Below are positions 19,338 to 44,575 of a DNA stretch of 64,000 nucleotides, in pieces. Numbering within the stretch: position 1 is the stretch's first letter; each line of letters starts with the position of its first letter. The notes below the pieces were generated by a model, which saw only the letters and a program-made list of their open reading frames with translations, made no database searches and had not been told where the DNA came from. The stretch comes from an uncultured Eubacteriales bacterium (GTDB lineage: Bacteria > Bacillota > Clostridia > Oscillospirales > Acutalibacteraceae), in contig CAYJJU010000002.1 of the NCBI GenBank assembly GCA_964370635.1, forward strand, positions 93,237 to 157,236, read 5' to 3'. The translations under genes were made by a program, and so were the position numbers.

Positions 19338-20004
19338 ACCTGTATCCTACCCCTCTTACCGTGACTACAAATTTATTATAAGGCCCTAAACTTTTTCTTA
19401 ATAGCTTAATATGGGTGTCTAAAGTCCTGTCATCTCCGTAAAAATCATAGCCCCATACATTAGAGATAAGCTTATCACGTGAAAGCGCAATATTCTTATT
19501 TGAAATCATATAAAATAAAAGCTCGTACTCTTTTGGTGAAAGCTCTGCGCGACTTCCGTCTACCGTCACAATTCTTGCGGAAAAATCCACATTAAGCCCT
19601 TCTGCGCTGAAAACATCTTTGCTATTCTCCTTTTCGCCGACGGTTCTTTTAATTATAGCGTTAATCCGCATCAATAATTCTTTTGGAGAAAAAGGTTTGG
19701 TGACATAATCGTCTACACCAAGTTCAAAACCGTGGATTTTGTCGTACTCCTCTCCCCTTGCCGAAAGCATGAGCACGGGCACTTTAGAAATTTTTCTTAT
19801 CCTAGCCACGGCGGAAAATCCGTCAAGCTCGGGCATCATGACGTCCATAATAACTATGTCAAATTTATCCGGATTATCTGTAAAAATCGTCACAGCGTCC
19901 ATGCCATTTTCCGCCTCGGTTACGGTGTGACCTTCAAACTCGGCGTATTTTTTTATTAAAAGCCTGATATTCATTTCGTCGTCTACTATTAAAATATGAT
20001 ACAT
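19327..20004 (-). CDS. OmpR-family response regulator
   Basis: Receiver domain (ILIVDDE, DVMMPELDG) plus a winged-helix output domain (VRGVGYRF). Start moved to the ATG at 20004, which follows GGAGA. Overlaps the kinase start. Confidence 0.92.
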   Translation of the reverse strand: MYHILIVDDEMNIRLLIKKYAEFEGHTVTEAENGMDAVTIFTDNPDKFDIVIMDVMMPELDGFSAVARIRKISKVPVLMLSARGEEYDKIHGFELGVDDYVTKPFSPKELLMRINAIIKRTVGEKENSKDVFSAEGLNVDFSARIVTVDGSRAELSPKEYELLFYMISNKNIALSRDKLISNVWGYDFYGDDRTLDTHIKLLRKSLGPYNKFVVTVRGVGYRFEI

Positions 20005-20147
20005 ATAAATTCTCCGTTCAATCTGAATTTTCATCATCTTAACACTGCTTTGTGAAGTTTTGGTGAAAGATGTTTACCGTTAAATGTAATTATAACTTTT
20101 TTATCAAAAATTATCAAGATTTTTACTTAAAAAATGTGTAAAATATA

Positions 20148-20957: not shown

Positions 20958-21042
20958 GTAGGGGACGGCGTCCTCGACGTCCCTCATGGCTTACCAAAAA
21001 ATTCATTAAACCTTGCAGTGCGTCGAGGATGCCGCACCCTAC
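20958..21042. repeat. REPIN-like doublet (two inverted REP units)
   Basis: GTAGGGGACGGCGTCCTCGACG at 20958.. and CGTCGAGGATGCCGCACCCTAC at ..21042 are near reverse complements of each other. Confidence 0.7.
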
Positions 21043-21096
21043 ATTTAAGCTGATGAAAAAATAATATATGTGTAAACTTTTAGATTTAACACGACA

Positions 21097-21124
21097 GTAG
21101 GGGCGACGTTTCTCGCCCGTAGGG
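21097..21124 (+). repeat. REP unit in the leader of array gene 1
   Basis: GTAGGGGCGACGTTTCTCGCCCGTAGGG. Same architecture as the units in front of genes 4-9. Confidence 0.75.
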
Positions 21125-21151: not shown

Positions 21152-22510
21152 ATGAAAAAGTTTATATCAATATTACTCGGCACAATCTTAATAATCCTAA
21201 CAGCCTGTAGCACAGGCTCAGGCACAGAAAAGGCGAAAATCGAAATTATCCCAGAGGGCACAGAGCTTTCGGGCACGCTGATTATTTCAACCGATACTGA
21301 AGAAATAAGCGGGGTAGGGTTATTCGCGCTTGCAGATGGGTTTATGGACTTGCATCCTGGTGTTGAAATTGAAATCAACGAAACATATGACGACTATGAT
21401 TCAAGGGTGAAATATAGCGAGCAATTAAAAGTAGAAATGCTTGCGGGAGAAGCGCCTGACTTATTGCATCACTCTTTTGATTATAGCTCAAATTTTGCAA
21501 TAGGCGGACTTCTGATGGATTTGAATTCATTTATAGAAAATGATGAAACTTTTATAAAGGAAGATTATTTTATGAACTTACTTGAAGCTAGTGAGCTTGG
21601 CGGAAAGCAGTATCGTATGCCACTATACACAGCTCCGATAGAGTTTATTAGGTTTAGAGTAGATGTCTTAGAGGCCGCAGGAATTGACCCTGACACAATA
21701 GACGCAGTAGACTATAAACTACTATATGAAATTTATGACAAAGCGATAGCAAGCGGAGAAGTACCTGAACTTAAATATATAGGCAAAGACGGCTATGGGT
21801 CAATGTATTTTCTTGCACAAGAGATGGCGGCTTGTTTTGACCGTGAAACTATGACTGCAAACTTTGAAACAGAAGAATTTATAGAATATCTTGAAACAGC
21901 AAAAGCACATAATGCGCCAAGCGGTGGAGCAGATGGGTATTTGTTTATTGATGGAGTGGATGAATTAATAGAAGCTACAGACTTTTTTGCAGTGAGCGTT
22001 ACTATATCTCCATCAAATCCTCAAGAAGTCATGGGGAAAGACAGTAAAATAACAAAAGCCTATCCGGTGGTAACTTCTGCTGGGGAATTGGCGGTGCGTG
22101 ATGGACTAGTAAGCATACCGACAAATGCAAATAATCCCGGACTTGCGTGGGAGTTCATTAAATACTGTATTTATGAGAGTGAAGAAATACAAATATATTT
22201 GGACAAAGACATACCGGCAGGGTATTGGGGTGGCGATAGATTTTCAGGCTCAACACCCATAAATAAAAATAATATGGAAAAATATTTCCAAAAATGTCTT
22301 CAAGGCTTCCCCGAAGAATATATAGAAGAAACTATCTCGCTTGTATACACCTATGACCAATACGAATTGATAAGCGATATTCCGTCTTCGGATTTAAGGA
22401 CTGCGCTTTACCGGTTGGTAGTTGATTACTATAATAATTTACTAACAGCTGAAGAATGTGCAAGCGCTATGCAAGACAGAGTGGAGGTTTATTTTGCGGA
22501 GATAGAATAA
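21152..22510 (+). CDS. SBP-like lipoprotein, array copy 1 of 9
   Basis: 452 aa. Signal peptide MKKFISILLGTILIILTAC with a lipobox. Motifs GEAPDL and NPGLAWEFIKY. RBS AAAGGAGG. Confidence 0.9.
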   Translation: MKKFISILLGTILIILTACSTGSGTEKAKIEIIPEGTELSGTLIISTDTEEISGVGLFALADGFMDLHPGVEIEINETYDDYDSRVKYSEQLKVEMLAGEAPDLLHHSFDYSSNFAIGGLLMDLNSFIENDETFIKEDYFMNLLEASELGGKQYRMPLYTAPIEFIRFRVDVLEAAGIDPDTIDAVDYKLLYEIYDKAIASGEVPELKYIGKDGYGSMYFLAQEMAACFDRETMTANFETEEFIEYLETAKAHNAPSGGADGYLFIDGVDELIEATDFFAVSVTISPSNPQEVMGKDSKITKAYPVVTSAGELAVRDGLVSIPTNANNPGLAWEFIKYCIYESEEIQIYLDKDIPAGYWGGDRFSGSTPINKNNMEKYFQKCLQGFPEEYIEETISLVYTYDQYELISDIPSSDLRTALYRLVVDYYNNLLTAEECASAMQDRVEVYFAEIE

Positions 22511-22612
22511 AAAATGCGTAGCATTTTTCAGTGAAGAGTGAAGAGCGAAAAGTGAAAAGTTGTGGCGAAACCACAATTTCCAGTGTAGACACAAAACAAA
22601 AGGAGGAGCGTT
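22511..22612 (+). repeat. array junction J1 (long form with internal deletion, no REP)
   Basis: Contains the hairpin AAAATGC-GTA-GCATTTT and heptads GTGAAGA GTGAAGA GCGAAAA GTGAAAA. The empty REP site CAGTGTAG|ACACAAAAC lies at 22581..22597. Confidence 0.8.
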
Positions 22613-23992
22613 ATGAAAAAGTTTATATCAATATTACTCGGCACAATCTTAATAAGCCTAACAGCCTGTAGCACAGGCTCAGGCACAGAAAAGGCCAAAA
22701 TCGAAATTATTCCCGAGGGTACAGAACTTTCGGGCACGCTTAATATTTGGAGCGATGCAATAGCGCATCAACATACTGATATAAATTCATTAAAACTTGG
22801 TTTTGAGGAACTTCATCCCGACGTTACCATAATTATTAACGATGAAAACAGCTACGTTGACTCCGATGGAAACACACTTGATGAAAAATACATGGCGGAT
22901 TTAGGCATTAAAATGCTAAGCGGCAATGCGCCTGATTTGCTTTATAACCGCCATGACTTAGTGACAAACTTCGTGCCTGCCGGATTAATTTATGACTTAT
23001 ATGAATTTATTGAGGCAGACGATAGATTTAATACAGAAGATTATTTTGAGAAAATATTAAAACTTGGAGAAATAAATGGTGGTCTATATTCAATTGCTGC
23101 TAGTGCGCTATTTGAGTTTTATAGATTAAGCGAAGAAGTACTAACGGCGGCTGAGGTCGACCCAGATACGCTTGAAAACATAGATTATAAATTCATTTAT
23201 GATGTCTACAATAAAGCGACGGCAAGTGGCAAAGTCCCACAGCTTGAATACATAGGCGGCGGTGGAGCATTTCATGGTTTTTTTGAAGAATTGTCTGCGC
23301 ACATTGATAAAGATAACTTGACCGCTAGTTTTAACTCGCCCGAATTTATAGATTACTTAGAAATGGCAAAAACATATACGGGGCCTGACACTAGGCCAAT
23401 AGGACACATGGTGCATCCAATTTACGCTGATTATGGCTTTCCCGAGACTCTTCCGAAAGATTTTCCATATATAGGGGTTTCTGTAGCTGCTGACTTGTTA
23501 GGAGGCGCGCAGGATATGTTGGCGGAAGTTGAGGGTTTAACAAAGCCTATTCCTTACCTTAATTTAAACGGTGAATATAAAATTCTGCCCGGAAACTCAA
23601 TGTCAATACCGAGCAACTCAAAAAACCCAGAACTTGCGTGGGAATTCATCAAATACTGCGTAAGCGAAACAGAAAATTACGATGCGTCTATAAGATATTG
23701 GGGAAAGGCAAACGGAGCAAAATTTTGGAGCGGAATCCCCATAAACAAAAACAATTTAGAGCATTATATGTCACCATTACTTGCTGGATATAGCAGTGAA
23801 CAAAAAGAAGAATTTATGTCGTATATTGATACTGCTTTGAATTTACCATCCGCAGGAGCCACCCCGCCACTAGAACTTAATATAGCTATTCCCTTAATCG
23901 TTGCAGATTATTTAAATAGCATGATGACAGCCGAGGAATGTGCAAAAGCAATACAAGACAGGGTAGAGATTTATTTTGCGGAGATAGAATAA
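22613..23992 (+). CDS. SBP-like lipoprotein, array copy 2
   Basis: 459 aa. The first 41 residues are near-identical to copies 1 and 3. Motifs GNAPDL and NPELAWEFIKY. C-terminus MTAEECAKAIQDRVEIYFAEIE. Confidence 0.9.
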   Translation: MKKFISILLGTILISLTACSTGSGTEKAKIEIIPEGTELSGTLNIWSDAIAHQHTDINSLKLGFEELHPDVTIIINDENSYVDSDGNTLDEKYMADLGIKMLSGNAPDLLYNRHDLVTNFVPAGLIYDLYEFIEADDRFNTEDYFEKILKLGEINGGLYSIAASALFEFYRLSEEVLTAAEVDPDTLENIDYKFIYDVYNKATASGKVPQLEYIGGGGAFHGFFEELSAHIDKDNLTASFNSPEFIDYLEMAKTYTGPDTRPIGHMVHPIYADYGFPETLPKDFPYIGVSVAADLLGGAQDMLAEVEGLTKPIPYLNLNGEYKILPGNSMSIPSNSKNPELAWEFIKYCVSETENYDASIRYWGKANGAKFWSGIPINKNNLEHYMSPLLAGYSSEQKEEFMSYIDTALNLPSAGATPPLELNIAIPLIVADYLNSMMTAEECAKAIQDRVEIYFAEIE

Positions 23993-24127
23993 AAAACGCG
24001 TAGCATTTTTCAGTGAAGAGTGAAAAGTGAAGAGTGAAAAGTTGTGGCGAAATGCTTCGCATTTTTTGATTACAAATTGTTAAAACCACAATTTCCAGTG
24101 TAGACACAAAACAAAAGGAGGAGCGGT
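23993..24127 (+). repeat. array junction J2 (long form, no REP)
   Basis: Hairpin, 2 x GTGAAGAGTGAAAA, then hairpin GCGAA-ATGC-TTCGC plus T6. Empty REP site at 24096..24112. Confidence 0.8.
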
Positions 24128-25501
24128 ATGAAAAAGTTTATATCAATATTACTCGGCACAATCTTAATAAGCCTAACAGCCTGTAGCACAGGTTCAGGCA
24201 CAGAAAAGGCGAAAATCGAAATTATCCCAGAGGGCACAGAGCTTTCTGGCACTCTTGAAATTTGGAGCGACTCAGAAAACACAGGTAGAACATCTATAGA
24301 GGGTTTACGGGACGGATTTGAAGAAATTCACCCTGAGGTTGAGATAATTATTAATGACGGTCATAATTATCTTGATAATTACGGAGCTCTGGACGATGAA
24401 AAATTCAAGGCGGATTTAGGTATTAAAATGCTAAGTGGTGATGCGCCTGATTTGCTATATAACGAAAAAGATTATGTTACAAATTTTGTGCCTTCCGGAC
24501 TAATTTATGACTTATATGAATTTATCGAGGCAGACGACAGCTTTAATACGGAAGATTATTTTGAAGAGATATTAAGGCTTGGAGAAATTAATGGTAGTCT
24601 ATACTCAATTGCCGATGGTGCTACATTTGATTTTCACAGGCATAATATAGACGTATTAGAAGCAGCAGATGTTCAGCCCGATACGCTTGAAAGTATAGAC
24701 TATAAATTCATTTACGATGTCTACAATAAGGCGATGGCAAGTGGTGAAGTCCCGTATTTTACACATATAGGTATATACGGAAAGGCTTATGGGTTTTTGC
24801 AGGAATTGCCTGTCTACTTTAATAAAGAAACTTTGACTGCTAACTTTAACACAGCCGAATTTATCGATTATCTTGAAACTGTAAATGCCTATACTGCACA
24901 GGACACAATGCCAATAGGTAATTTTGATTCCTATAATAACTCTGATTATTCCATTCCGATACCTGAGGACTATCCTTATATCGGCATGAGCGTATCAACA
25001 CATTTGCCATATGGTCCGGAAGGGGTGTTAAGAGAGGACGAAAGCTTAACAAAGCCAATTCCCTTACTTAATTCAAGCGGTGAATATCAAATTAATCCAG
25101 GCAATGCAATGTCAATACCAAGTAATGCAGAAAATCCACAGCTTGCGTGGGAGTTCATTAAATACTGCATAAGTGAAGTAGAAAATATGGATACATCTTT
25201 ACTAAGTATAGGAAAAGTAAACGGAACAAAATATTCGGGCTATATGCCGGTAAATAAAAATAATGCCGAGACCTATATTAATGCATCTCTAGTAGGATAT
25301 AGTGATGAACAGAAAGAAGAGTTTATGTCGTATATTGATAAGGCTTTGGATTTACAGATAGCAGGCGCAGAGCCACCACATGAGCTTCTTGCCGCCGTAG
25401 TAGAGATATTAGAAGATTATCTAAACGACCTAATGACCGCAGAAGAATGCGCAAAGGCTATGCAGGACAGGGCGGAGATTTATTTTGCAGAGATAGGGTG
25501 A
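24128..25501 (+). CDS. SBP-like lipoprotein, array copy 3
   Basis: 457 aa with lipobox LTAC and motifs GDAPDL and NPQLAWEFIKY. Confidence 0.9.
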   Translation: MKKFISILLGTILISLTACSTGSGTEKAKIEIIPEGTELSGTLEIWSDSENTGRTSIEGLRDGFEEIHPEVEIIINDGHNYLDNYGALDDEKFKADLGIKMLSGDAPDLLYNEKDYVTNFVPSGLIYDLYEFIEADDSFNTEDYFEEILRLGEINGSLYSIADGATFDFHRHNIDVLEAADVQPDTLESIDYKFIYDVYNKAMASGEVPYFTHIGIYGKAYGFLQELPVYFNKETLTANFNTAEFIDYLETVNAYTAQDTMPIGNFDSYNNSDYSIPIPEDYPYIGMSVSTHLPYGPEGVLREDESLTKPIPLLNSSGEYQINPGNAMSIPSNAENPQLAWEFIKYCISEVENMDTSLLSIGKVNGTKYSGYMPVNKNNAETYINASLVGYSDEQKEEFMSYIDKALDLQIAGAEPPHELLAAVVEILEDYLNDLMTAEECAKAMQDRAEIYFAEIG

Positions 25502-25663
25502 AAAATGCGTAGCATTTTTTAGTGAAGAGTGAAAAATGAAGAGTGAAAAGTTGTGGCGAAATGCTTCGCATTTTTTGATTATAAATTGTCAAAACCACGG
25601 TTTCATTGTAGGGGCGACGTTTCGTCGCCCGTGAGGTTTACGCAAAACAAAAGGAGGAGCGGT
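25502..25663 (+). repeat. array junction J3 (long form with REP at 25608..25636)
   Basis: Full module: stop-adjacent hairpin, 2 heptad pairs, hairpin plus T6, then GTAGGGGCGACGTTTCGTCGCCCGTGAGG, then AAAGGAGG. Confidence 0.85.
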
Positions 25664-27058
25664 ATGAAAAAGTTTATATCAATAATTTTAATTTTAAGCT
25701 TAATTTCATTAATATCTTGCACCGACCAAAGTGCGAAGATTTATTCTGAGAATATGGGAAGCGGTGACAGTGTGAGCGATTTGGAAAGTGATGCAAAAAC
25801 AGAACTTTCAGGCACACTTGAAATTTCAACGGCACTAGTTCAAGACGATGCAATGGGTTGGGGTGCTTCGATTCGTAAATTTCAAGAGCTTTATCCCGAT
25901 GTGGAAGTGATTTTTAACGACACGGCTATAGATGTTTTGTCGGCAAGTTTTGAATCATATGACATTGCAATGCAAAAGTATCAACAAGACTTAAGCCTTA
26001 AGATGATTTCGGGCGGCGCTCCCGATTTGATTGTAAACATGAGCGACTATACAACTCAGTTTGTGCCAAGCGGACTAATTTATGATTTAAACAAATTTAT
26101 AGAAAACGACCCCGAATTTATTTATGAAGATTACTATATGAACGTCATAGAAGGGCAAGAAATAAACGGTGGTCTATACAGAATGCCCACCGAGTTTACA
26201 TTTAAATCTATAAGATTTAGAAAAGATGTGTTTGACAATTTAGGGATAAGCGAAGACGAAATTGACACCGTAGACTATAAATTCTTGTATGATTTATATT
26301 TTGACACAGTAGAAAGCGAAAATTTACCTGATGTTAAACAAATATTATTCGACGTTTTTGACGGCAAGGCGTTAATGTACAACGAAGAGCGTGCCGTGGC
26401 TTTTGACTCTAACACAATGACGGTAAATTTTAATGCACCCGAATTTATAGAATACTTAGAAACGACAAATAAATACGAGCAAAACAGCCCATTTGCATTT
26501 TTAGCTTATGAGGGCGAATTATTTTCGCAAGATGGTTATATAGCAGTCGGCATGAATGTCGCACCCTCGCCATCTGATGCGCTGATCGATGAAAAAGAAA
26601 ATGTGACCAAGGCATATCCCGTTGTCACCTCTCAAGGAGAACTCATAGTAGAGGCAGTTGAAAGCATGACTATCCCAAAAGACGCTAAAAACCCCGAACT
26701 TGCATGGGAATTTATTAAATTCCACATATCCGAGGGCGAAGTTACATTTAAAACAGAAGACGGCCATGAGTATGGAAGCAAGGGTAATGGTTTAATACAA
26801 ATAAATAGGAATAACCATTTAAACAATGCAAAAAGCACTTTCGAGTATTTTAAAAGAGATGAAGATTTTACAGCCAAATATTTTTCATATTTAGAAAGTG
26901 CCCTTGAGCTACCTGTCGCGGCAGGTTTAACCGACATCCAGTTATCAGGTGCATTAAACTTACTTCAAATGGACTTTTATAACGGCCTAATGACAGCAGA
27001 AGAATGTGCCAAAGCTATGCAGGATAGGGCGGAGATTTATTTTGCAGAAATAGAATAA
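25664..27058 (+). CDS. SBP-like lipoprotein, array copy 4
   Basis: 464 aa from the ATG at 25664 (RBS AAAGGAGGAGCGGT). Lipobox LISC. Motifs GGAPDL and NPELAWEFIKF. The ORF-track start at 25553 reads through the repeat. Confidence 0.9.
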   Translation: MKKFISIILILSLISLISCTDQSAKIYSENMGSGDSVSDLESDAKTELSGTLEISTALVQDDAMGWGASIRKFQELYPDVEVIFNDTAIDVLSASFESYDIAMQKYQQDLSLKMISGGAPDLIVNMSDYTTQFVPSGLIYDLNKFIENDPEFIYEDYYMNVIEGQEINGGLYRMPTEFTFKSIRFRKDVFDNLGISEDEIDTVDYKFLYDLYFDTVESENLPDVKQILFDVFDGKALMYNEERAVAFDSNTMTVNFNAPEFIEYLETTNKYEQNSPFAFLAYEGELFSQDGYIAVGMNVAPSPSDALIDEKENVTKAYPVVTSQGELIVEAVESMTIPKDAKNPELAWEFIKFHISEGEVTFKTEDGHEYGSKGNGLIQINRNNHLNNAKSTFEYFKRDEDFTAKYFSYLESALELPVAAGLTDIQLSGALNLLQMDFYNGLMTAEECAKAMQDRAEIYFAEIE

Positions 27059-27119
27059 AAAGTGTAGGGGCGACGTTTCGTCGCCCGTGAGGTTTACGCA
27101 AAACAAAAGGAGAAGACTT
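27059..27119 (+). repeat. array junction J4 (61-nt short form: REP + RBS only)
   Basis: TAA AAAGTGTAGGGGCGACGTTTCGTCGCCCGTGAGG...AAAGGAGAAG. REP at 27064..27092. Confidence 0.85.
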
Positions 27120-28535
27120 ATGAAAAAGTTTATATCAATAATTTTAATTTTAAGCTTAATTTCATTAATATCCTGCACCGACCGAGTTGCCGAGATTTAT
27201 TCTGAGAATATGATAAGTACTGCGCAGGAGAGTGACACTGTATTTGAGGAAGAAGAAAGCGGTACTGACACAAGCAACAATGTGCTGGTGATATCTTCTG
27301 ATTTAGCGCCAATGGAATTCTCAGGGGTGTTGCCCCTTGTTGAGGGATTTAAAAAACTCCACCCCGATGTTGAAATTATTTTGAACGAAACCGGCATAGA
27401 CCCCTTCACTGTCGGACCTCTTGAAAGCGTTATTGTATATGAAAAATACATGGCCGACTTAAGCGTTAAAATACTTTCAGGCGAAGCTCCGGATTTGCTT
27501 TTTAGCACAGGCGACTCCAATAGTGACTTTGCCTTTAGCGGACTCTTGTATGACCTTAATGAGTTTATAGAAAATGATGAAACTTTTATACAAGAAGATT
27601 TTTTCATGGAAGTATTAAATTCATGGGAGCTTGAAGACGCACTTTACAGCATGCCGACGGCATTTACATTTGGATTTGCTCGATTTAGGCAAGATGCACT
27701 TGATGCAGTGGGAATAAGTCTTGAGGGCGTGGAAAGTGTAGACTACAGATTTCTATTTGATACATATTACACCGTACTTGACAGTGGGTTATTTCCTGAA
27801 ATCACACATTTGGGCAGAGAAGAATACGTAGGTAAGGGAATTTTAACATTTGAGGAGCGAACAAGAAACTTTGATAAAGAGAGTATGACAGTAAATTTTG
27901 AAAGTGAAGAATTTTTAGATTTTCTTAATACTACTAACGGATACCTTGTCTCAGATAAGCCGTTTGGAAGTTTTTACATAGATGGCCCGGATAGTCTATT
28001 TGAGAGAGATGACTATTTAGTAGAAGGTTCGTACGCAACACTTTCCAGAGTCTTTAGTTTAACCGGTAAGCATGCGAAGGCAACAAAGGCTGTTCCGATT
28101 ACCACATCTGAGGGAGAATTATTACTTAGCGGGGATAATTTAAGTATTCCAAAAGATGCCAAAAACGCCGAGCTTGCATGGGAATTTATTAAATACTGCA
28201 TATATGAAAGCGAAAAAGTGTCAACTTCTTATGATACCATCGGAGAGTGGGAGGGAGATAGATTTTATGATGCTATTCCTCTAAACAAAAATAACTTCCA
28301 GAAAATATGTGATGCGTATACAGTAGGTGAAACACAAGAGGCGTATATGACAGAGTATTATGACTTTGTAATAAAAGCACTCGAGTTACCGCTAGCAACA
28401 AGAATTCCATCATCAACTCTAGGTTATGCGCTAGATGCAATACAAATGGATTTCTATAACGGCCTAATGACCGCAGAAGAATGCGCTAAAGCTATGCAGG
28501 ACAGAGCGGAACTTTACTTTGCGGAGATAGGGTAA
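27120..28535 (+). CDS. SBP-like lipoprotein, array copy 5
   Basis: 471 aa from the ATG at 27120. Lipobox LISC. Motifs GEAPDL and NAELAWEFIKY. Confidence 0.9.
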   Translation: MKKFISIILILSLISLISCTDRVAEIYSENMISTAQESDTVFEEEESGTDTSNNVLVISSDLAPMEFSGVLPLVEGFKKLHPDVEIILNETGIDPFTVGPLESVIVYEKYMADLSVKILSGEAPDLLFSTGDSNSDFAFSGLLYDLNEFIENDETFIQEDFFMEVLNSWELEDALYSMPTAFTFGFARFRQDALDAVGISLEGVESVDYRFLFDTYYTVLDSGLFPEITHLGREEYVGKGILTFEERTRNFDKESMTVNFESEEFLDFLNTTNGYLVSDKPFGSFYIDGPDSLFERDDYLVEGSYATLSRVFSLTGKHAKATKAVPITTSEGELLLSGDNLSIPKDAKNAELAWEFIKYCIYESEKVSTSYDTIGEWEGDRFYDAIPLNKNNFQKICDAYTVGETQEAYMTEYYDFVIKALELPLATRIPSSTLGYALDAIQMDFYNGLMTAEECAKAMQDRAELYFAEIG

Positions 28536-28697
28536 AAAATGCGTAGCATTTTTTAGTGAAGAGTGAAAAGTGAAGAGTGAAAAGTTGTGGCGAAATGCTT
28601 CGCATTTTTTGATTACAAATTGTTAAAACCACGGTTTCATTGTAGGGGCGACGTTTCGTCGCCCGTGAGGTTTACGCAAAACAAAAGGAGAAGACTT
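28536..28697 (+). repeat. array junction J5 (long form, REP at 28642..28670)
   Basis: Same module order as J3. Confidence 0.85.
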
Positions 28698-30104
28698 ATG
28701 AAAAAGTTTATATCAATAGTTTTAATTTTAAGCTTAATATCATTAATATCTTGCACCGACCAAAGTGCCCAGATTTATTCTGAGAATATGGGAAGTGCCC
28801 AGCAGGAAAGCGACACCGAATCAGAAGACAGTGACGATACTAATAATAATGTGCTGGTGATATCTTCTGATTTAGCGCCAATGGAATTCTCCGGGGTGTT
28901 GCCCCTTGTTGAGGGGTTTAAAAAACTTCACCCAGATGTTGAAATTATAATAAGCGACACGGGTGTAGATATGATGTCGTTAACAGCCGATGAAGTGCCG
29001 ATTGCATTTAACAAATACATGGACGACTTAAGTGTTAAAATGCTCGCAGGCGAAGCTCCAGATTTGATTTACGGCACAAGTGACTATAATAACGACTTTG
29101 CCTTTAGCGGGCTTTTATATGACCTCAATGAATTCATTGACAATGATGAAACGTTCATAAAAGAAGATTTTTTCATGAACGTGCTAGAGGCCTGGGAAAT
29201 TGCAGGTGGACTGCATAGCATGCCTAGCATTTTAATGTTCAACTCTGTGCGCTTTAGGCAAGATGTGCTTGATGGCGTGGGGATAAGTCTTGATGAAATA
29301 GAAAGTGCAGACTATAAATTTTTATTTGACACATATTATAAAGTTCTTGACAGTGGCTTATTCCCTGAAATCACTCATTTAGGCAGAGAGGAATATGTTG
29401 GAAAAGCTCCTCTTACATCTGATGAAATGGCAAGTGCATTTGATAGAGAAAGTATGACTGTAAGTTTTGAAAGTGAAGAATTTTTAGACTTTCTTAACAC
29501 TACTAACGGGTACGATGTCACAGACATTCCATTTGGTTTTTTCGCTCTAGACGGCTCAGATTTTCTCTTCCAAAGAGATGAATATTTAGTAGAGGGCTCA
29601 ATTACAAGTGTCAGTAAAGCAACTTATTTAGTTTCAACACAAGCGAACGCCTCTAATGCTGTTCCAATTACCACATCCGAGGGAGAACTCTTCGTAACAG
29701 GGAATAACTTCAGTATTCCAAAAGATGCCCAAAACCCTGAGCTTGCATGGGAATTTATAAAATACTGCATATATGAAAGCGAAACTGTTTCGACTGCCTT
29801 GGACGCTATTGGAGAATGGGAGGGCGATAGATTTGAAAGTGCTATCCCCATAAATAAGAATAATTTCAAAAAATTGTGTGATGCGTACGCAGTAGGGGAA
29901 ACACAAGAGGCGTATATGACAGACTTTTATGATTATGTAGTAAAATCACTGGAGTTACCTATTGCAACAAAATTGCCTTCAGCGACTTTAGCCCGTACTA
30001 TAAGTAAAATACAAGTAGATTTCTATAACGGCTTAATGACCGCAGAAGAATGTGCAAATGCAATGCAAGACAGGGCGGAGATTTATTTTGCGGAGATAGG
30101 GTAA
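28698..30104 (+). CDS. SBP-like lipoprotein, array copy 6
   Basis: 468 aa from the ATG at 28698, with a lipobox, an acidic linker SAQQESDTESEDSDD, and motifs GEAPDL and NPELAWEFIKY. Confidence 0.9.
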   Translation: MKKFISIVLILSLISLISCTDQSAQIYSENMGSAQQESDTESEDSDDTNNNVLVISSDLAPMEFSGVLPLVEGFKKLHPDVEIIISDTGVDMMSLTADEVPIAFNKYMDDLSVKMLAGEAPDLIYGTSDYNNDFAFSGLLYDLNEFIDNDETFIKEDFFMNVLEAWEIAGGLHSMPSILMFNSVRFRQDVLDGVGISLDEIESADYKFLFDTYYKVLDSGLFPEITHLGREEYVGKAPLTSDEMASAFDRESMTVSFESEEFLDFLNTTNGYDVTDIPFGFFALDGSDFLFQRDEYLVEGSITSVSKATYLVSTQANASNAVPITTSEGELFVTGNNFSIPKDAQNPELAWEFIKYCIYESETVSTALDAIGEWEGDRFESAIPINKNNFKKLCDAYAVGETQEAYMTDFYDYVVKSLELPIATKLPSATLARTISKIQVDFYNGLMTAEECANAMQDRAEIYFAEIG

Positions 30105-30266
30105 AAAATGCGTAGCATTTTTCAGTGAAGAGTGAAAAGTGAAGAGTGAAAAGTTGTGGCGAAATGCTTCGCATTTTTTGATTATAAATTGTCAAAACCA
30201 CGGTTTCATTGTAGGGGCGACGTTTCGTCGCCCGTGAGGTTTACGCAAAACAAAAGGAGGAGCGGT
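30105..30266 (+). repeat. array junction J6 (long form, REP at 30211..30239)
   Basis: Same module order as J3. Confidence 0.85.
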
Positions 30267-31673
30267 ATGAAAAAGTTTATATCAATAATTTTAATTTTAA
30301 GCTTAATTTCATTAATATCTTGCACCGACCAAAGTGCGAAGATTTATTCTGAGAATATGGGAAGTGCCCAGCAGGAAAGCGACACCGAATCAGAAGAAGA
30401 CAGTGACGATACTAATAATGTGCTGGTGATATCTTCTGATCTTATACCACAAGAATTTGCAGGTTTTGGCCCCCTTGTTGAGGGCTTTGAAAAACTCCAC
30501 CCCGATGTTGAAATTATAATTAACGATACGGGTGTAGACATGATGGCGTTAACCCCTGATGAAACAACACTTGCATTTAACAAATACATGGACGACTTAA
30601 GCGTTAAAATGCTCGCAGGCGAAGCTCCGGATTTGATTTTTAGCACAGGTGATTTTAATAACGACTTTGCATTTAGCGGACTTTTATATGACCTTAATGA
30701 ATTCATAGAAAATGATGAAACGTTCATAAAAGAAGATTTTTTCATGGAAGTATTAAAGGCATGGGAAGTTGCAGGTGGACTGCACAGCATGCCCACAACT
30801 TTTGAGTTTTCATCGGTTCGTTTTAGGCAAGATGTGCTTGATGGCGTGGGAATAAGCCTTGACGAAATAGAAAGTGCAGACTATAAATTTTTATTTGACA
30901 CATATTATACAGTACTTGACAGTGGATTATTCCCTGAAATCACTCATTTAGGCAGAGAGCAATATGTTGGAAAAGGAATTTTAGCGTTAGAGGAAATATC
31001 GAATGCATTTGATAAAGAAACAATGACTGTAAATTTTGAAGGTGAAGAATTTTTAGACTACCTCAACACTACATTAAATTACGAAGCTGGACAATATCCG
31101 TTCGGCAGTTTTATGATGGCTGGTGCGGATACATTGTTTGAGCGAGAAGAGTATTTAGCCGAAGGTTCAGGCTCATATACTGACGATGCAGATTGCTTGG
31201 TTTCAGAAAAAGATAATGCCTCAAAGGCTATTCCCCTTACAACATCTGGGGGAGAGTTATTAGTAAAAGGGAATAATTTAAGCATTCCAAAAGATGCCAA
31301 AAACCCTGAGCTTGCATGGGAATTTATTAAATACTGTATATACGAGAGTGAAACAGTTTCAATCGCATTTGACGCTATTGGAGAATGGGACGGAGACAGA
31401 TTCTTTAACTCAATTCCAATAAATAGAAATAATTTTAAGAAAATATGTGATGCTTATTCAATAGGAGACCTACAAACGGTTTACATGACAGAGTATCATG
31501 ATTATGTAATAAAATCACTTGAATTACCCATTGCGACAAGAATGCCCTCAAATATTTTAGTAAAAGAGTTGAATAATTTACAAACAGATTTTTATAACGG
31601 CCTAATGACAGCAGAAGAATGTGCAAAAGCCATGCAGGATAGGGCGGAGATTTATTTTGCAGAAATAGAATAA
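30267..31673 (+). CDS. SBP-like lipoprotein, array copy 7
   Basis: 468 aa from the ATG at 30267. Same motifs as the other copies. Confidence 0.9.
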   Translation: MKKFISIILILSLISLISCTDQSAKIYSENMGSAQQESDTESEEDSDDTNNVLVISSDLIPQEFAGFGPLVEGFEKLHPDVEIIINDTGVDMMALTPDETTLAFNKYMDDLSVKMLAGEAPDLIFSTGDFNNDFAFSGLLYDLNEFIENDETFIKEDFFMEVLKAWEVAGGLHSMPTTFEFSSVRFRQDVLDGVGISLDEIESADYKFLFDTYYTVLDSGLFPEITHLGREQYVGKGILALEEISNAFDKETMTVNFEGEEFLDYLNTTLNYEAGQYPFGSFMMAGADTLFEREEYLAEGSGSYTDDADCLVSEKDNASKAIPLTTSGGELLVKGNNLSIPKDAKNPELAWEFIKYCIYESETVSIAFDAIGEWDGDRFFNSIPINRNNFKKICDAYSIGDLQTVYMTEYHDYVIKSLELPIATRMPSNILVKELNNLQTDFYNGLMTAEECAKAMQDRAEIYFAEIE

Positions 31674-31734
31674 AAAGTGTAGGGGCGACGTTTCGTCGCC
31701 CGTGAGGTTTACGCAAAACAAAAGGAGGAGCGGT
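31674..31734 (+). repeat. array junction J7 (61-nt short form, REP at 31679..31707)
   Basis: Nearly identical to J4. Confidence 0.85.
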
Positions 31735-33192
31735 ATGAAAAAGTTTATATCAATAATTTTAATTTTAAGCTTAATTTCATTAATATCTTGCACCGACCAA
31801 AGTGCGAAGATTTATTCTGAGAATATGGGAAGTGCTAATCAAAGCGAAGAAGATGAAAACACTGTCAGTGATGAAGGGGCAGCAGAAAGTACACTTTCGG
31901 GGACTTTAAAAATATCGTCTTCTTCTCAGCCGGAATATTTTTACCCATGGGCTAATACACTTAGAGAATTTAATAAAGTTCATCCAAATGTCGTGATAGA
32001 ATATAATGACACGGCGGTTCCTGCATTTGATTTGTCGCCGGAGGAATATATGCTCGCTTTAGAAAAATACGAAGACGATTTAGGTGTTAATATGGTTGCA
32101 GGAAATCCTCTTGATTTGATAATAAACAGTAAAGATTACACCAGTCAATTTGTTCCAAGTGGCATAATATATGATTTATACGAATTTATAGAAAACGACC
32201 CTGAGTTTATAAAAGAGCATTACTTTATGAATATTTTGGAACAAAGTGAAATAAAGGGTGGACTATATGTGCTTCCGACAGAAATAATATTTGAGTCGGT
32301 AAGAATTAGAAGCGATGTTTTGGAGTATTTTGAGATTGATGAAAACAATATCGAAACAGTCGACTATAAGTTTATGTACGATTTGTATTTTAAAACAGTT
32401 GAAAGCGGAGCCTTTCCAGAAATTAAATATATGGTGAGAGAGGAATTTTCAAGTAAAGCAGTATTGCTAGATGAAGAATATGCAGCGGCGTATGACCCTG
32501 AAACAATGACTGTGAACTTTGAAACACCCGAATTTATAGAATATTTAGAAACTACAAAAAAATTTGATGCAGTGGAAAATCCTTTTCAACTGAGAGCTGC
32601 AATAGGCGATATAGGGGTTTTTGCCACTGATGACTATTTGTTTGAAATTTCACAGTCTGTTGGTCAGGGTGCAAAATTTTATATGGGAGAAATGGAAAAT
32701 GCAACACGTCCTTTTCCACTTGTATCATCTACAGGTCAGCTAGTACCCACAGTTTTCGGGGGAATAAGTATCCCTAAAAATGCAGAAAACGCAGAGCTTG
32801 CGTGGGAGTTTATAAAGTTTTATATAGGCGAGACAGAAGAAGCGAATTATTATGACGAGGAAGAAAACGTAATTGGAACTAGAAGTAGCGGTGCAATATT
32901 TATAAACAGAGAGCTTTACAAGGTAGACCAAATGAACGTAGTAATTCAAGAGCTTGTTTACAGAGGTATAAACGAAGAGGAAGTTACGTACACAGTGGAG
33001 GAAATAGAAGGACTTATTTCATATGTAGAAAACGCATTGGCTATTCCACTTACTTTAGGGATTACAGATGTAGCGCTAAACAGTACACTCAGAGAAATAC
33101 AATTCGACTACTACAGCGACTTAATGACAGCAGAAGAATGTGCAAAAGCTATGCAGGATAGGGCGGAGATTTATTTTGCGGAGATTGAGTAA
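31735..33192 (+). CDS. SBP-like lipoprotein, array copy 8
   Basis: 485 aa from the ATG at 31735. Closest by eye to copy 4. Motifs GNPLDL and NAELAWEFIKF. Confidence 0.9.
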   Translation: MKKFISIILILSLISLISCTDQSAKIYSENMGSANQSEEDENTVSDEGAAESTLSGTLKISSSSQPEYFYPWANTLREFNKVHPNVVIEYNDTAVPAFDLSPEEYMLALEKYEDDLGVNMVAGNPLDLIINSKDYTSQFVPSGIIYDLYEFIENDPEFIKEHYFMNILEQSEIKGGLYVLPTEIIFESVRIRSDVLEYFEIDENNIETVDYKFMYDLYFKTVESGAFPEIKYMVREEFSSKAVLLDEEYAAAYDPETMTVNFETPEFIEYLETTKKFDAVENPFQLRAAIGDIGVFATDDYLFEISQSVGQGAKFYMGEMENATRPFPLVSSTGQLVPTVFGGISIPKNAENAELAWEFIKFYIGETEEANYYDEEENVIGTRSSGAIFINRELYKVDQMNVVIQELVYRGINEEEVTYTVEEIEGLISYVENALAIPLTLGITDVALNSTLREIQFDYYSDLMTAEECAKAMQDRAEIYFAEIE

Positions 33193-33365
33193 AAAGTGAA
33201 GAGTGAAAAGTGAAGAGTGAAAAGTGAAGAGTGAAAAGTGAAGAGTGAAAAGTTGTGGCGAAATGCTTCGCATTTTTTGATTATAAATTGTCAAAACCAC
33301 GGTTTCATTGTAGGGGCGACGTTTCGTCGCCCGTGAGGTTTACGCAAAACAAAAGGAGGAGCGGT
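33193..33365 (+). repeat. array junction J8 (expanded heptad repeat, REP at 33310..33338)
   Basis: Four exact GTGAAGAGTGAAAA units at 33196..33251, versus two elsewhere. It lacks the stop-adjacent AAAATGC hairpin. Confidence 0.85.
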
Positions 33366-34769
33366 ATGAAAAAGTTTATATCAATAATTTTAATTTTAAG
33401 CTTAATTTCATTAATATCTTGCACCGACCAAAGTGCCCAGATTTATTCTGAGAATATGGGAAGTGCCCAGCAGGAGAGCGACACCGAATCAGAAGACAGT
33501 GACGATACTAATAATGTGCTTGTGATATCTACCGAGTATGTACCACAAGAATATGCAGGTTTTGGTTCTCTTATTGAAGGCTTTAAAAAACTCCATCCCG
33601 AGGTTGAAGTTATATTAAACGACACGAGTGTGGATACGATGTCCTTAACACCTGATGAAACAACACTTGCACTTAGTAAATACATGGATGACTTAAGTGT
33701 TAAATTGCTCGCAGGCGAAGCTCCGGATTTGATTTTTTGCTTGGGTGATTTTAATAACGACTTTGCCTTTAGCGGACTTTTATATGACCTTAATGAGTTT
33801 ATTGAAAATGATGAAACGTTTGTAAAAGAAGATTTTTTCATGGAAGTGCTAGAGGCCTGGGAAATTGCAGGGGGGCTTCATAGCATGCCTACAATTTTTC
33901 TATTCAACTCTGTGCGTTTTAGACAAGATGTGCTTGATGGCGTGGGGATAAGCGTTGATGAGATGGAAAGTGTGGACTATAAGTTTTTATTTGATACATA
34001 TTATACGGTTCTTGACAGTGGATTATTCCCTGAAATCACTCATTTGGGTAGGCCGGAATATGTAGGAAAAGGTCCTCTTACATCTGAAGAAAGGGCAAGT
34101 GCATTTGATAGAGAAAGTATGACTGTAAGTTTTGAAAGTGAAGAATTTTTAGATTTTCTTAACACTACTAATGGGTACGATATCACAGACATTCCATTTG
34201 GAACTTTAAATATCGATGGTGCAGATTTTTTCTTTCAAAGAGATGAATATTTAGTAGAAGGAGCAACTTCAGTCACAGGCAACGCAGTTCAATTAATTTC
34301 AAATCAAGCGAATGCCTCAAAGGTTATTCCGATTACCACATCTGAGGGAGAACTTTTAATCAAAGGAAATAATGTGAGCATTCCAAAAGATGCCAAAAAC
34401 CCTGAACTTGCATGGGAATTTATAAAATACTGCATATATGAGAGTGAAACCGTGTCAACTTCTTATGATACCATCGGAGAATGGGAGGGCGATAGGTTTG
34501 AAAATTTTGTTCCTATAAATAAAAATAATTTCAAAAAATTGTGCGATGCGTACGCAGTAGGCGAAACGCAAGAGGTGTATATGGCAGACTTTTATGATTA
34601 TGTAATAAAAACACTGGAGCTACCCATTGCAACAAAGTTGCCTTCAACGACTTTAGGCCGTGCTTTAGATGCAATACAAATGGACTTTTATAACGGCCTA
34701 ATGACAGCAGAAGAATGCGCAAAGGCTATGCAGGACAGGGCGGAGATTTATTTTGCGGAGATTGAGTAA
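33366..34769 (+). CDS. SBP-like lipoprotein, array copy 9
   Basis: 467 aa from the ATG at 33366. Same motifs as the other copies. Confidence 0.9.
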   Translation: MKKFISIILILSLISLISCTDQSAQIYSENMGSAQQESDTESEDSDDTNNVLVISTEYVPQEYAGFGSLIEGFKKLHPEVEVILNDTSVDTMSLTPDETTLALSKYMDDLSVKLLAGEAPDLIFCLGDFNNDFAFSGLLYDLNEFIENDETFVKEDFFMEVLEAWEIAGGLHSMPTIFLFNSVRFRQDVLDGVGISVDEMESVDYKFLFDTYYTVLDSGLFPEITHLGRPEYVGKGPLTSEERASAFDRESMTVSFESEEFLDFLNTTNGYDITDIPFGTLNIDGADFFFQRDEYLVEGATSVTGNAVQLISNQANASKVIPITTSEGELLIKGNNVSIPKDAKNPELAWEFIKYCIYESETVSTSYDTIGEWEGDRFENFVPINKNNFKKLCDAYAVGETQEVYMADFYDYVIKTLELPIATKLPSTTLGRALDAIQMDFYNGLMTAEECAKAMQDRAEIYFAEIE

Positions 34770-34850
34770 AAAATGCGTAGCATTTTTCAGTGAAGAGTGA
34801 AAAGTGAAGAGTGAAAAGTTGTGGCGAAATGCTTCGCATTTTTTGATTAT
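34770..34850 (+). repeat. terminal half-junction J9
   Basis: Hairpin, 2 heptad pairs, then hairpin plus T6. Homology to the junctions ends there; there is no REP or RBS. Confidence 0.8.
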
Positions 34851-34861
34851 ATTTTAAAAAG

Positions 34862-34920
34862 CTGCAAACAAAAAAATGAGCCGGCTGGCTCATTTTTTAC
34901 TTTTTGCGTCACAAAAACAA
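34862..34920 (-). repeat. partial copy of the E1 internal module, including a bidirectional terminator hairpin (34870..34899)
   Basis: The reverse complement GTTTTTGTGACGC...AAAAAATGAGCCAGCCGGCTCATTTTTTTG aligns with 3736..3790 of E1. Confidence 0.65.
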
Positions 34921-41210: not shown

Positions 41211-42052
41211 TTAGTTTCCTCCTCCGACAAAATCTCATTTATTGTTCTTTTCGAATTTTCATCTGCATCATAGGTGATAAGCGCCTTCCAAAGCGCCCAA
41301 GCCTTTGCCCTATCTACCGTGAATTTATCTATATTCTTAAGAAAAAATTCTCTACTCTGACTATCAAAAAAAGTCCACGCCATGGCATAATCGCAAGACG
41401 GGTCGCCAATTCCCATAATTCCAAAATCTATTACCGCACACAAATGTCCCTTATCGACAAGCAAATTTCCGGGCGCTACATCTCCGTGTATCCAGACAGG
41501 TGTTTTTTCCCATTTGGAGGCTAGCCCTTTTTTCCAAATTTCAAGCAGCCTATCGGTCGGAAGCATGCCCTTTAAGCTTTCAAGAGCCTTTACGGTTTCA
41601 TCGTGGTACACCGCCAAATCTCCGCCACGATAAAAATTATGCGCCCCTGCCACGGGTGCGTTTTCGGTATTTATTTTTTGCAAATCAAGTAAAAACTGCG
41701 AGAGTTCCCTTGCAAAACTGTTTTTTGATTTCATATTGTGCGCACTTAAAGTTTCGCCCTTTATATAGCGATTTACAAGCCACGGAAAAGGATAATTTTC
41801 ATCGGGCTGACCTTTTGCTATGGGTGAAGAAATAGGCAGACTTAAAAACTGTGACAAAAACGGTAGCCACTTATACTCTTTTTCCACCTGAGGAACATAT
41901 GCTTTAGCGCTGGGTAGCCTTATTATCATGTCGTCCCCTAAGTGAAAACTCCTGTTATCATGCCCACTTTTTTCCACCGGCCTAATTTCCAAGTCTTTCC
42001 ATTTTGGAAACTGATTTGATATAAGCGAGCTTACTATTTCTAAATTAATCAT
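41207..42052 (-). CDS. aminoglycoside/choline-kinase-type phosphotransferase (APH family)
   Basis: 281 aa with HGDVAPGNLLV and IDFG motifs. Confidence 0.85.
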   Translation of the reverse strand: MINLEIVSSLISNQFPKWKDLEIRPVEKSGHDNRSFHLGDDMIIRLPSAKAYVPQVEKEYKWLPFLSQFLSLPISSPIAKGQPDENYPFPWLVNRYIKGETLSAHNMKSKNSFARELSQFLLDLQKINTENAPVAGAHNFYRGGDLAVYHDETVKALESLKGMLPTDRLLEIWKKGLASKWEKTPVWIHGDVAPGNLLVDKGHLCAVIDFGIMGIGDPSCDYAMAWTFFDSQSREFFLKNIDKFTVDRAKAWALWKALITYDADENSKRTINEILSEEETK

Positions 42053-42189
42053 AAAACCCCCACAAGATATTTTTTGTACCTATATTATATCTGTAAAATT
42101 CGTGGAGCGCAACGTGTATTTTAAAGTGAGTGTTGAATATTTAATTATTTTATGATAAAATTATTAAAATAATTTCTTTGGAGGTTAGC

Positions 42190-42627: not shown

Positions 42628-42672
42628 ATTGCGGCCTCGATGTCTTTTGCCATATATTTAAATTAAAAATAA

Positions 42673-42704
42673 AGAGGGCTCCCTTTCTTTGCAGGGAACC
42701 CTCT
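42673..42704. terminator. hairpin AGAGGGCTCCCT-N8-AGGGAACCCTCT
   Basis: 12-bp stem with one mismatch and A/T-rich flanks on both sides. It bounds the ORF-free region. Confidence 0.6.
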
Positions 42705-44573: not shown

Positions 44574-44575
44574 GT

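Follow-up and report, generated by a model that had tools for sequence, protein, structure and literature searches.

A row of genes for surface-anchored binding proteins with no transporter beside it raises the question of what the proteins serve and how so many of them came to stand together. The case considered here is an array of nine genes for lipoproteins resembling ABC importer solute-binding proteins (SBPs), located at positions 21152–34769 on the + strand of a 64-kb stretch of contig CAYJJU010000002.1 (GenBank assembly GCA_964370635.1, positions 93,237–157,236) from an uncultured Eubacteriales bacterium; this stretch of 64,000 nucleotides (nt), the whole of the DNA that was analyzed, is termed the window. 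A preliminary description of the array, made from the sequence alone, had offered three roles: a set of interchangeable binding lipoproteins feeding a distant transporter, surface capture of glycans or peptides, and a variable surface antigen set. The results presented here favor, with moderate confidence, a form of the first: a tandemly duplicated battery, gene-converted at its 5′ ends, of binding lipoproteins of the oligosaccharide type, whose transporter would be encoded elsewhere.

Array organization and protein family

With their starts trimmed to the conserved MKKFISI, the nine open reading frames (ORFs) lie head-to-tail and encode products of 452–485 amino acids (aa). Each begins with an ATG at the first coordinate given: copy 1 at 21152–22510 (452 aa), copy 2 at 22613–23992 (459 aa), copy 3 at 24128–25501 (457 aa), copy 4 at 25664–27058 (464 aa), copy 5 at 27120–28535 (471 aa), copy 6 at 28698–30104 (468 aa), copy 7 at 30267–31673 (468 aa), copy 8 at 31735–33192 (485 aa), and copy 9 at 33366–34769 (467 aa). 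All nine are intact, and each has a strong ribosome-binding site of its own, AAAGGAGGAG or AAAGGAGAAG, 8–9 nt ahead of the start codon. As read directly from the sequence, the proteins begin MKKFISI(L/I/V)L and have a lipobox, L(T/I)(A/S)C, at residues 17–20, which is LTAC in copies 1–3 and LISC in copies 4–9. The signal peptide with this lipobox is followed by an acidic, disordered tether of 25–30 residues, modeled with low confidence (low predicted local distance difference test values, pLDDT, at residues 18–47 of copy 9), a body of ~400 residues, and a tail common to the copies that ends in LMTAEECAKAMQDRAEIYFAEI(E/G), namely, MTAEECA(K/S/N)A(M/I)QDR(A/V)E(I/V/L)YFAEI(E/G). In gene number, strand, protein size, lipobox split, shared C terminus, and coordinates, the array is just as the preliminary description had it.

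The array proteins are family-1 (MalE-like, CUT1/SBP_bac_1) SBP lipoproteins. Eight of the nine match the Pfam SBP_bac_1 model at 31.8–49.9 bits, above the cut-off of 26 (copy 1, 49.6; copy 2, 33.3; copy 4, 46.8; copy 5, 33.7; copy 6, 36.5; copy 7, 49.9; copy 8, 31.8; copy 9, 34.8), and the match spans 280–300 residues in seven of the nine, falling into two stretches in copies 5 and 6. Copy 3, at 24.6 bits for SBP_bac_1 and 26.3 bits for SBP_bac_8 (cut-off 27), lies narrowly under both cut-offs and is 66% identical to copy 2, which passes. Sub-threshold matches in NCBIfam were to carbohydrate SBP models only. A profile built from 33 family members and searched against the PDB retrieved CbpC of C. 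thermocellum (7x0o, E = 5e-21), along with the mannobiose-binding MBP1, TMBP, Lmo0181, and YesO. The AlphaFold2 model of copy 9 (pLDDT 86.2; predicted template modeling score, pTM, 0.83) has a complete two-lobe binding fold, for which Foldseek found 1021 PDB matches at E ≤ 1e-3; nearly all of the top 50 are sugar or oligosaccharide SBPs of ABC importers, at a probability of 1.0. Template modeling (TM) scores of the top matches range from 0.46 to 0.68, the highest being that to CbpC, and identity to solved SBP structures is only 12–16%. The preliminary description had made the same family assignment from internal motifs, and both an SBP fold and hidden Markov model matches now stand behind it.

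Those motifs, APDL, GGL(Y/H)xMP, and NPELAWEFIK(Y/F), were found by sequence comparison in all of the copies. GxAPD(L/I), NPELAW-EF-K-Y, and the C-terminal helix motif correspond to GDGPDII, NKELAKEFLENY, and the final helix of MalE; the three are core SBP motifs and nothing peculiar to the array. In a one-dimensional profile, the most variable blocks are residues 61–75, 91–105, 271–315, 391–405, and 421–435 of copy 9, while blocks shared by all nine copies lie at residues ~76–90, 106–120, 136–150, and 346–360 of that copy; diversification of the ligand-binding body is plausible.

Homogenized 5′ ends, mosaic cores, and selection

By aa identity, copies 2 and 3 form one group (66%) and copies 5, 6, 7, and 9 another (70–80%), while copies 1, 4, and 8 are singletons, 37–50% identical to all others. 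The pairing of copies 4 and 8 in the preliminary description does not stand, as they share 49.7% of residues and copy 4 is equally close to copies 7 and 9. At the 5′ end the picture is quite different: the first 96 nt are 98% identical within copies 1–3 and 91–100% within copies 4–9, and third positions of codons 1–20 are 90–100% identical within these groups, versus 33–41% for core third positions between subfamilies, which is near saturation for the base composition. The proportion of synonymous differences (pS) is 0.09–0.26 over the first 40 codons and typically 0.3–0.9 deeper in the genes, with local low-pS tracts that are consistent with mosaicism. In copies 4, 7, and 8 the first 96 nt and the 61-nt upstream untranslated region (UTR) are 100% identical on top of cores that share ~50% of residues, a signature of gene conversion or unequal crossing-over. 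Near-identity had been claimed for both ends of the genes; it holds for the first ~100 nt and the spacers, but not for the last ~70 nt, where identity is 75–97% over the final 72 nt and 42–92% at third positions in the last 24 codons. The 3′ coding end is conserved mainly as protein, and near-identical DNA resumes just past the stop codon.

Recombination among the cores is significant for copies 5, 6, 7, and 9, by permutation and by the pairwise homoplasy index (PHI), in agreement with the earlier impression of patchwork genes. Their 107 parsimony-informative sites fall in blocks by topology, grouping 5 with 6 and 7 with 9 at alignment nt 100–300, 5 with 7 and 6 with 9 at 500–1400, and 5 with 9 and 6 with 7 around 1100–1200 and at the 3′ end. 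Like sites are adjacent 60 times, versus 36.4 ± 4.7 in permuted data (p < 1e-4), and the observed PHI value was not attained in any permutation. The shared tracts previously quoted for copies 5 and 6 and for copies 5 and 9 are present in those genes; copy 5 is mosaic, and copy 7, described before as a mixture, is 9-like in its 5′ part and 6-like in the middle. The end, core, and pS data together fit the proposed growth of the array by duplication, gene conversion at 5′ junctions, and recombination among cores.

The ratio of nonsynonymous to synonymous divergence (dN/dS) is 0.19–0.34 in the 27 of 36 pairs with estimable dS; the other nine are synonymously saturated, with nonsynonymous differences (pN) of 0.38–0.45 against pS of 0.74–0.78. 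In 40-codon windows, pN is below pS throughout and no window approaches 1, these being whole-gene and window comparisons. Even the youngest pair, copies 6 and 9, has a dS of 0.48, and most pairs are saturated. Since the copies are intact and under such constraint, they are old functional paralogues under purifying selection, neither recent nor decaying, and there is no overall diversifying selection on the array genes.

Spacers, repeats, and transcription signals

Spacers 3–4 (25502–25663), 5–6 (28536–28697), and 6–7 (30105–30266) consist of a full 162-nt module. It opens with a post-stop hairpin, 2.2 copies of the repeat (GTGAAGA GTGAAAA), and a weak terminator-like hairpin, GCGAAATGCTTCGC followed by T6; next come an A/T box with TATAAA, a palindrome of the repetitive extragenic palindrome (REP) type, GTAG-GGGCGACGTTTCGTCGCCC, and the ribosome-binding site. 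Spacer 6–7, the one that was folded, is more structured than its shuffles (z = −3.1). Spacers 4–5 (27059–27119) and 7–8 (31674–31734) are short, at 61 nt, and hold nothing but the REP-like hairpin and ribosome-binding site. Spacer 1–2 (22511–22612, 102 nt) has the post-stop hairpin, GTGAARA heptads, a TTGTGG/CCACAA hairpin, GTAG, and the ribosome-binding site, and spacer 2–3 (23993–24127, 135 nt) has the weak GCGAAATGCTTCGC+T6 hairpin and no REP palindrome; what is missing after GTAG from the UTRs of copies 2 and 3 is precisely the 28-nt stretch that bears the palindrome. In spacer 8–9 (33193–33365, 173 nt), 4.8 repeat copies (33187–33253) take the place of the post-stop hairpin. The last gene is followed at 34770–34898 by a truncated spacer, its first ~80 nt the same as in the internal spacers, and then by a hairpin of 12 bp with a T run (34871–34898), the sole strong intrinsic-terminator-like element of the array locus. 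Ahead of copy 1, the leader at 20958–21120 has an inverted pair of GTAG-headed REP-like palindromes, with arms of 36 nt at 20958–20993 and 21007–21042 that are 75% complementary, and a third REP-like hairpin at 21097–21120, ~30 nt before the ribosome-binding site, with an exact GTAGGGGCGACG at 21097. Array genes carry seven exact REP-like copies in their 5′ UTRs.

The heptad repeat, (GTGAAGA GTGAAAA)n, is found at 22530–22560, 24012–24042, 25521–25551, 28555–28585, 30124–30154, 33187–33253, and 34789–34819, in numbers that vary from 2.2 to 4.8 among spacers. GTGAARA heptads are array-specific, with 27 of the 28 matches in the window falling in spacers versus 0.8 expected by chance. They also lie beside family genes of a related metagenome-assembled genome (MAG), at 9867–9886 of locus L002, 1991–2010 of L007, and 1611–1630 of L010, where the whole spacer architecture recurs.

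One or a few long transcripts may start upstream of copy 1 and end at the strong terminator past copy 9, with the weak hairpins in the long spacers perhaps modulating read-through. Spacer 4–5 has no terminator-like element, which makes co-transcription of copies 4 and 5 probable. By eye, a TATAAA/TACAAA box with no −35 element lies 29 nt downstream of the heptads. Rfam models gave no riboswitch or leader RNA match inside the array, and the junctions have no T or A runs longer than 7.

Several further features of this intergenic DNA were observed. GTAG-headed REP-type palindromes are scattered in the intergenic DNA of the window, often as inverted doublets (20958–21120, 25608, 27064, 28642, 30211, 31679, 33310, 60117–60175, 62369, and 62481–62551). 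An ORF of 175 aa at 51600–52127 (−) matches the model for REP-associated tyrosine transposases (RAYTs; NF047646) with E = 5e-19 and 68.7 bits, below the 80-bit cut-off, and has no Pfam match. On the minus strand, the A/T box of the spacers reads TTGACAATTTATAAT, and three spacers hold a promoter-like site, ATGAAA-17-TATAAT (10 of 12 positions), at 25606–25578, 30209–30181, and 33308–33280. Antisense ORFs of 132–150 aa over the conserved 5′ parts of copies 5, 7, and 9 are probably spurious.

Relatives in other genomes

A word-indexed search of 5.8 billion proteins found 33 close homologues, ~14 of them on a contig of 170,621 bp, which is the length of the source contig, so that ~5 further family copies probably lie on the source contig outside the window. 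An exhaustive profile search of 1.84 billion representatives gave ~19 proteins above 490 bits, 382 at E < 1e-30, and 13,899 at E < 1e-3; apart from short fragments, a metagenome scan yielded no match above 31% identity. The nearest genomes are two MAGs, also labeled uncultured Eubacteriales, with many copies, often in tandem, on many mostly short contigs. One of them contains a locus, L004, that is syntenic with the window: its flanking genes are 81–97% identical in aa, and it keeps the MATE transporter, the helix-turn-helix (HTH)-AMP-binding protein, the kinase, the regulator, and the cytidylate-kinase-like gene. Against nine family genes in the window, L004 has one (P0014), as fits growth of the array at this site; P0014 is 52% identical to its nearest array relative, copy 8. 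The content of the array thus appears to turn over much faster than its neighborhood. A neighbor-joining tree interleaves copies from the window and the MAGs, with copy 1 next to P0024 (68% aa identity), copy 8 next to P0014, and copies 2 and 3 next to P0015; copy 1, the pair of copies 2 and 3, and copy 8 each have closer relatives in other genomes than within the array, and copies 5, 6, 7, and 9 form a local clade. The array is thus a mixture of ancient paralogues and copies from a local expansion.

The first 60 nt or the last 72 nt are homogenized in tandem sets at L001, L002, L006, L015, L019, L021, and L027, which argues that concerted evolution of the ends is general for tandem SBPs of this family; L002 has two near-identical tandem copies. 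Because such sets recur in other Clostridia, the phenomenon is less exceptional than the preliminary description implied.

Two other observations concern these genomes. Comparison of window positions 13416–34769 with L004 positions 2691–11760 finds the block from a 149-aa gene through the SBP gene inverted relative to its neighbors, with one breakpoint falling in a degenerate array spacer that directly follows the SBP gene, and the YeiH and LysR genes absent from L004; the inversion may be a genuine rearrangement at the repeats or an artifact of MAG assembly. Among distant relatives are 760–830-aa proteins with this SBP domain in tandems of 3–5 genes and 850–966-aa proteins with two matched stretches, apparently fused double SBPs (L040, L041, L043, L046, L049, and L061, from Ruminococcus/Oscillospiraceae MAGs; P0108, P0123, P0129, P0131, and others).

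Transporter linkage

The window contains nine SBPs and no cognate membrane component (9:0). No ABC permease was detected in its six frames by jackhmmer seeded with six Pfam-verified BPD_transp_1 permeases, and the sole six-frame match to LSGG(Q/E/M) is LSGGE at 5702, inside the one ABC ATPase gene of the window (5276–5950, ABC_tran), which belongs to another system. The absence from the 64 kb of a permease or ATPase of the SBPs' transporter class, reported earlier, is thus borne out. Of the statement that the only ABC system is of the MacB/FtsX type, the single ATPase stands; the label was not confirmed by Pfam or NCBIfam, neither of which matched the two membrane proteins of this system (4124–7790).

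Linkage to two BPD_transp_1 permeases, which is usual though not required for the SBP family, is found in relatives. Pfam-identified pairs directly adjoin family genes at L005, from one of the two closest MAGs, and at L015 and L021; L026, L033, L035, L036, and others are further permease-linked loci, and a fused 12-transmembrane permease lies beside family genes at L022 and L028. These ABC operons often have 2–4 tandem SBPs per permease pair (L005, L015, L021, and L026), as in Oliverpabstia (L015), where the order is lacto-N-biose phosphorylase, permease, four tandem SBPs, permease. The phosphorylase was considered as a clue to the ligand and set aside, L015, at ~25% identity, being too distant for ligand transfer. 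Permease neighbors occur at about half of the distant loci, versus 1 of the 14 loci of the two closest MAGs, where ~22 family genes stand against a single permease pair. The L005 permease, on a 38,920-bp contig, has a single close orthologue in the database, 93% identical, on a contig of 29,288 bp, which is also the size of a contig carrying three family SBPs; a database search found no orthologue on a 170,621-bp contig.

A proposed binding-protein battery and its alternatives

In the proposed mechanism, each protein would bind its own distinct ligand, probably an oligosaccharide, on the cell surface and hand it over to MalFG-type permeases, a pair whose genes lie elsewhere in the genome and which draws on a shared ATPase. 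Delivery to a shared permease is suggested by the same family adjoining permease pairs in relatives, and among the three roles offered earlier the battery fits best because those relatives stand in ordinary ABC operons, often with several SBPs per pair. Tandem duplication built the array, and conversion of the module formed by 5′ UTR and signal peptide would keep the copies in register. Through conversion or unequal crossing-over, near-identity is maintained in the 5′ UTR with its REP-like hairpin, in the signal peptide, and where the tether begins.

Several points weigh against this reading. The sequence covered is the 64-kb window, and no partner permease or ATPase was located. No glycoside hydrolase or sugar-catabolic gene adjoins the array, so that the carbohydrate assignment rests on fold and on family similarity at the low identities given above; in the closest MAGs, likewise, no carbohydrate-active enzyme or sugar regulator lies beside family copies, the neighbors being unrelated. 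The copies matched no NCBIfam equivalog, hence there is no ligand assignment. A scan of the + strand found no sigma-70-like promoter upstream of copy 1 or in any spacer, as had been noted before for the junctions. Importers with multiple SBPs usually have 2–5 of them, and it is not established that a single permease pair would accept considerably more than ten. Finally, the lone copy at L004, a locus of a congeneric MAG, could reflect a collapsed short-read assembly instead of one real gene.

An alternative is that the SBPs act mainly as extracellular ligand sensors docking on a membrane sensor such as the adjacent histidine kinase, with the two-component system controlling the array. ChvE/VirA, LuxP/LuxQ, and CBP/ChiS, in which an SBP docks on a sensor, provide the model, and SBP-dependent sensor kinases are an established class (PMC8050422). 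The candidate system (17862–20037, −) comprises a HAMP-HisKA-HATPase_c kinase with two transmembrane segments and an OmpR-type regulator (19327–20037) ~1 kb upstream of the array, and the neighborhood of kinase, regulator, cytidylate-kinase-like gene, and SBP is conserved in L004. A GTGAAG-N5-GGTGAA direct repeat with an 11-bp period (20052–20067, +) lies upstream of the regulator gene; it is the only GTGAA-N6-GTGAA of the window and forms a conserved island in the otherwise diverged intergenic region of L004 (~9135–9155), which makes it a candidate regulator site. A link between this box and the spacer heptads, whose confinement to the array would suit such control, is speculation, and the 7-bp period of the heptads differs from that of OmpR-family sites, for which 10–11 bp would be expected. 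Kinase and regulator lie on the opposite strand, divergent from the array, with an unrelated gene in between. At least 20 other family copies in related genomes lie beside Band_7, PrsA-like, BlaR1-like, GGDEF/EAL, and flagellin genes instead, and distant relatives are embedded in canonical ABC operons. We know of no precedent for nine sensors serving one kinase. Sensing as the main function is accordingly judged unlikely, and the kinase and regulator are taken as context only.

Equally doubtful is a transport-independent surface repertoire, consisting of glycan-capturing adhesins or of a variable set reshuffled by gene conversion against phages or host immunity. Surface anchoring, mosaic cores, and fast turnover (the L004 gene against its well-conserved neighbors) would suit this alternative, as would the narrow lineage, with its few close homologues in the protein and metagenome searches; binding assays of B. 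infantis family-1 SBPs have also included Caco-2 epithelial cells (PMC3057974). The purifying selection found in every estimable pair argues otherwise, as do the nine complete, expressed-type genes with no silent cassettes, and the locus has no invertible promoter, long homopolymer tract, or recombinase; the inverted repeats of the leader are REP-like palindromes and not inverton arms flanking a promoter. The motifs conserved in all copies are those of the SBP core, and close relatives are permease-linked. Phase or antigenic variation was rejected on dN/dS, complete ORFs, and the lack of switch elements; dN/dS and the absence of phase-variation features likewise argue against the antigen set of the preliminary description.

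A self-homogenizing cassette system for receptor diversification was also considered, in which a portable module would keep copies in register while binding segments are shuffled for new specificities, the heptads serving as sites for a two-component regulator or an RNA-binding factor that sets which part of the array is expressed. Its module would comprise the post-stop hairpin or REP, GTGAARA heptads, weak terminator, REP-bearing 5′ UTR, and signal peptide, and this unit from spacer to signal peptide is conserved even between genomes whose coding cores are <50% identical. The idea is a long shot.

That the array is a by-product of repeat-driven amplification, with REP-like elements and spacers promoting unequal crossing-over and only dosage or redundancy as the outcome, is very improbable: REP-like GTAG palindromes in the spacers, a RAYT-like gene in the window, the coincidence of the array boundary with the L004 inversion breakpoint, and the near-identical tandem copies of L002, which point to ongoing duplication, are outweighed by the age of the paralogues (dS 0.48 to saturated), all of which nevertheless remain intact and constrained by purifying selection, by several subfamilies retained across genomes, and by divergence to 37–80% identity, which argues that dosage is not the benefit. 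An integron cassette array was rejected, as all "cassettes" belong to one paralogue family and the spacers are REP, heptad, and hairpin modules rather than attC-like sites; no integrase was found among the scanned window genes, the remaining ORFs having been checked by size and N-terminal sequence only.

Comparison with known systems

The array, read as a binding-protein battery, is an unusually large case of a known habit, that of having many binding proteins and few transporters. It shares with the CUT1/family-1 SBPs (CbpC 7x0o, TMBP 1eu8, YesO 5z6b, Lmo0181 5f7v, and MalE) the two-lobe fold, the conserved motifs, the Gram-positive lipoprotein anchor, and relatives beside MalFG-type permeases; it differs from them in having nine consecutive genes, with neither a permease nor an ATPase nor a sugar-catabolic gene in 64 kb, and in its distance from characterized members. 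Several SBPs share one ABC translocator in HisJ/ArgT with HisQMP and in AmiA/AliA/AliB with AmiCDEF. Family-1 SBPs are overabundant in the human milk oligosaccharide clusters of B. longum subsp. infantis (PMC3057974). As in these multi-SBP systems, SBP genes outnumber membrane components in the window and in the loci of the closest MAGs, some lie away from permeases, paralogues presumably differ in specificity, and relatives (L015, L021, and L026) have 2–4 tandem SBPs. The scale is larger here, with nine in tandem, ~14 on a 170-kb contig, and ~22 per permease pair in 14 loci of the closest MAGs; homogenization of the 5′ UTR and signal-peptide module extends to the nt level, and the array is known from sequence alone.

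The Bug orphan solute receptors of Bordetella, of the tripartite tricarboxylate transporter (TTT) type (Antoine et al. 2003, as cited in PMC8050422), provide a second parallel: as that citation presents them, they are a lineage-specific SBP excess, most without adjoining membrane components, though they belong to the TTT fold family, serve a secondary rather than an ABC transporter, reside in a Gram-negative periplasm, and are encoded by dispersed genes. The Bmp cluster of Borrelia is a tandem lipoprotein paralogue cluster that evolves by duplication and gene conversion. The Lpl/DUF576 tandem lipoproteins of Staphylococcus aureus are another (PMC5020093). The array resembles both in its head-to-tail lipoproteins with conserved signal peptides and diverged bodies and in its combination of birth-and-death with concerted evolution. 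Lpl proteins lack an SBP fold and have a host-interaction role, whereas the array proteins have a canonical SBP fold and are under purifying selection.

If the proposed reading is true, a little-known anaerobic Eubacteriales lineage invests heavily in extracellular capture, with dozens of receptors for few translocators, and offers a natural system for studying how many SBPs an ABC permease pair can serve and how docking surfaces stay constant. The nine copies and their mosaic relatives also form a natural chimera series for mapping specificity determinants of the SBP fold. No concept is changed, since tandem duplication and gene conversion are established, as are multiple and orphan SBPs.

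Genomic neighborhood and other features of the window

Upstream of the array are genes for an HTH-cupin-AMP-binding protein, the histidine kinase, the OmpR-type regulator, and the cytidylate-kinase-like protein; downstream are those for a YeiH-type membrane protein, a LysR regulator, a P-type ATPase, and an SBF transporter. No recombinase was found among the window genes scanned with Pfam or NCBIfam.

The only Rfam matches in the window are a T-box leader at 9339–9575 (+, 114 bits) and a 6S RNA at 44322–44525 (+, 52.6 bits). The T-box precedes the gene at 9621–11294, whose 557-aa product resembles the large subunit of acetolactate synthase, judged from its N terminus alone. The 6S RNA lies at the edge of a region of low guanine-plus-cytosine content (~42000–44000; 29%, versus ~39% elsewhere), and 42627–44675 has no ORF of 120 aa or more. 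A glycyl-radical enzyme with pyruvate formate-lyase-like and Gly_radical domains is encoded at 52856–55261 (−), and a 274-aa ORF at 56579–57403 (+) has the look of a radical S-adenosylmethionine activase, again from the N terminus alone; between them, at 55339–56471 (−), are genes for two small proteins with 5–6 transmembrane segments. At 62614–63942 (−), a 442-aa protein with a C-terminal DUF6591 domain has an acidic, Tyr/Asp-rich N-terminal half, and its gene holds 12-, 24-, and 33-nt arrays identified with a tandem-repeat finder.

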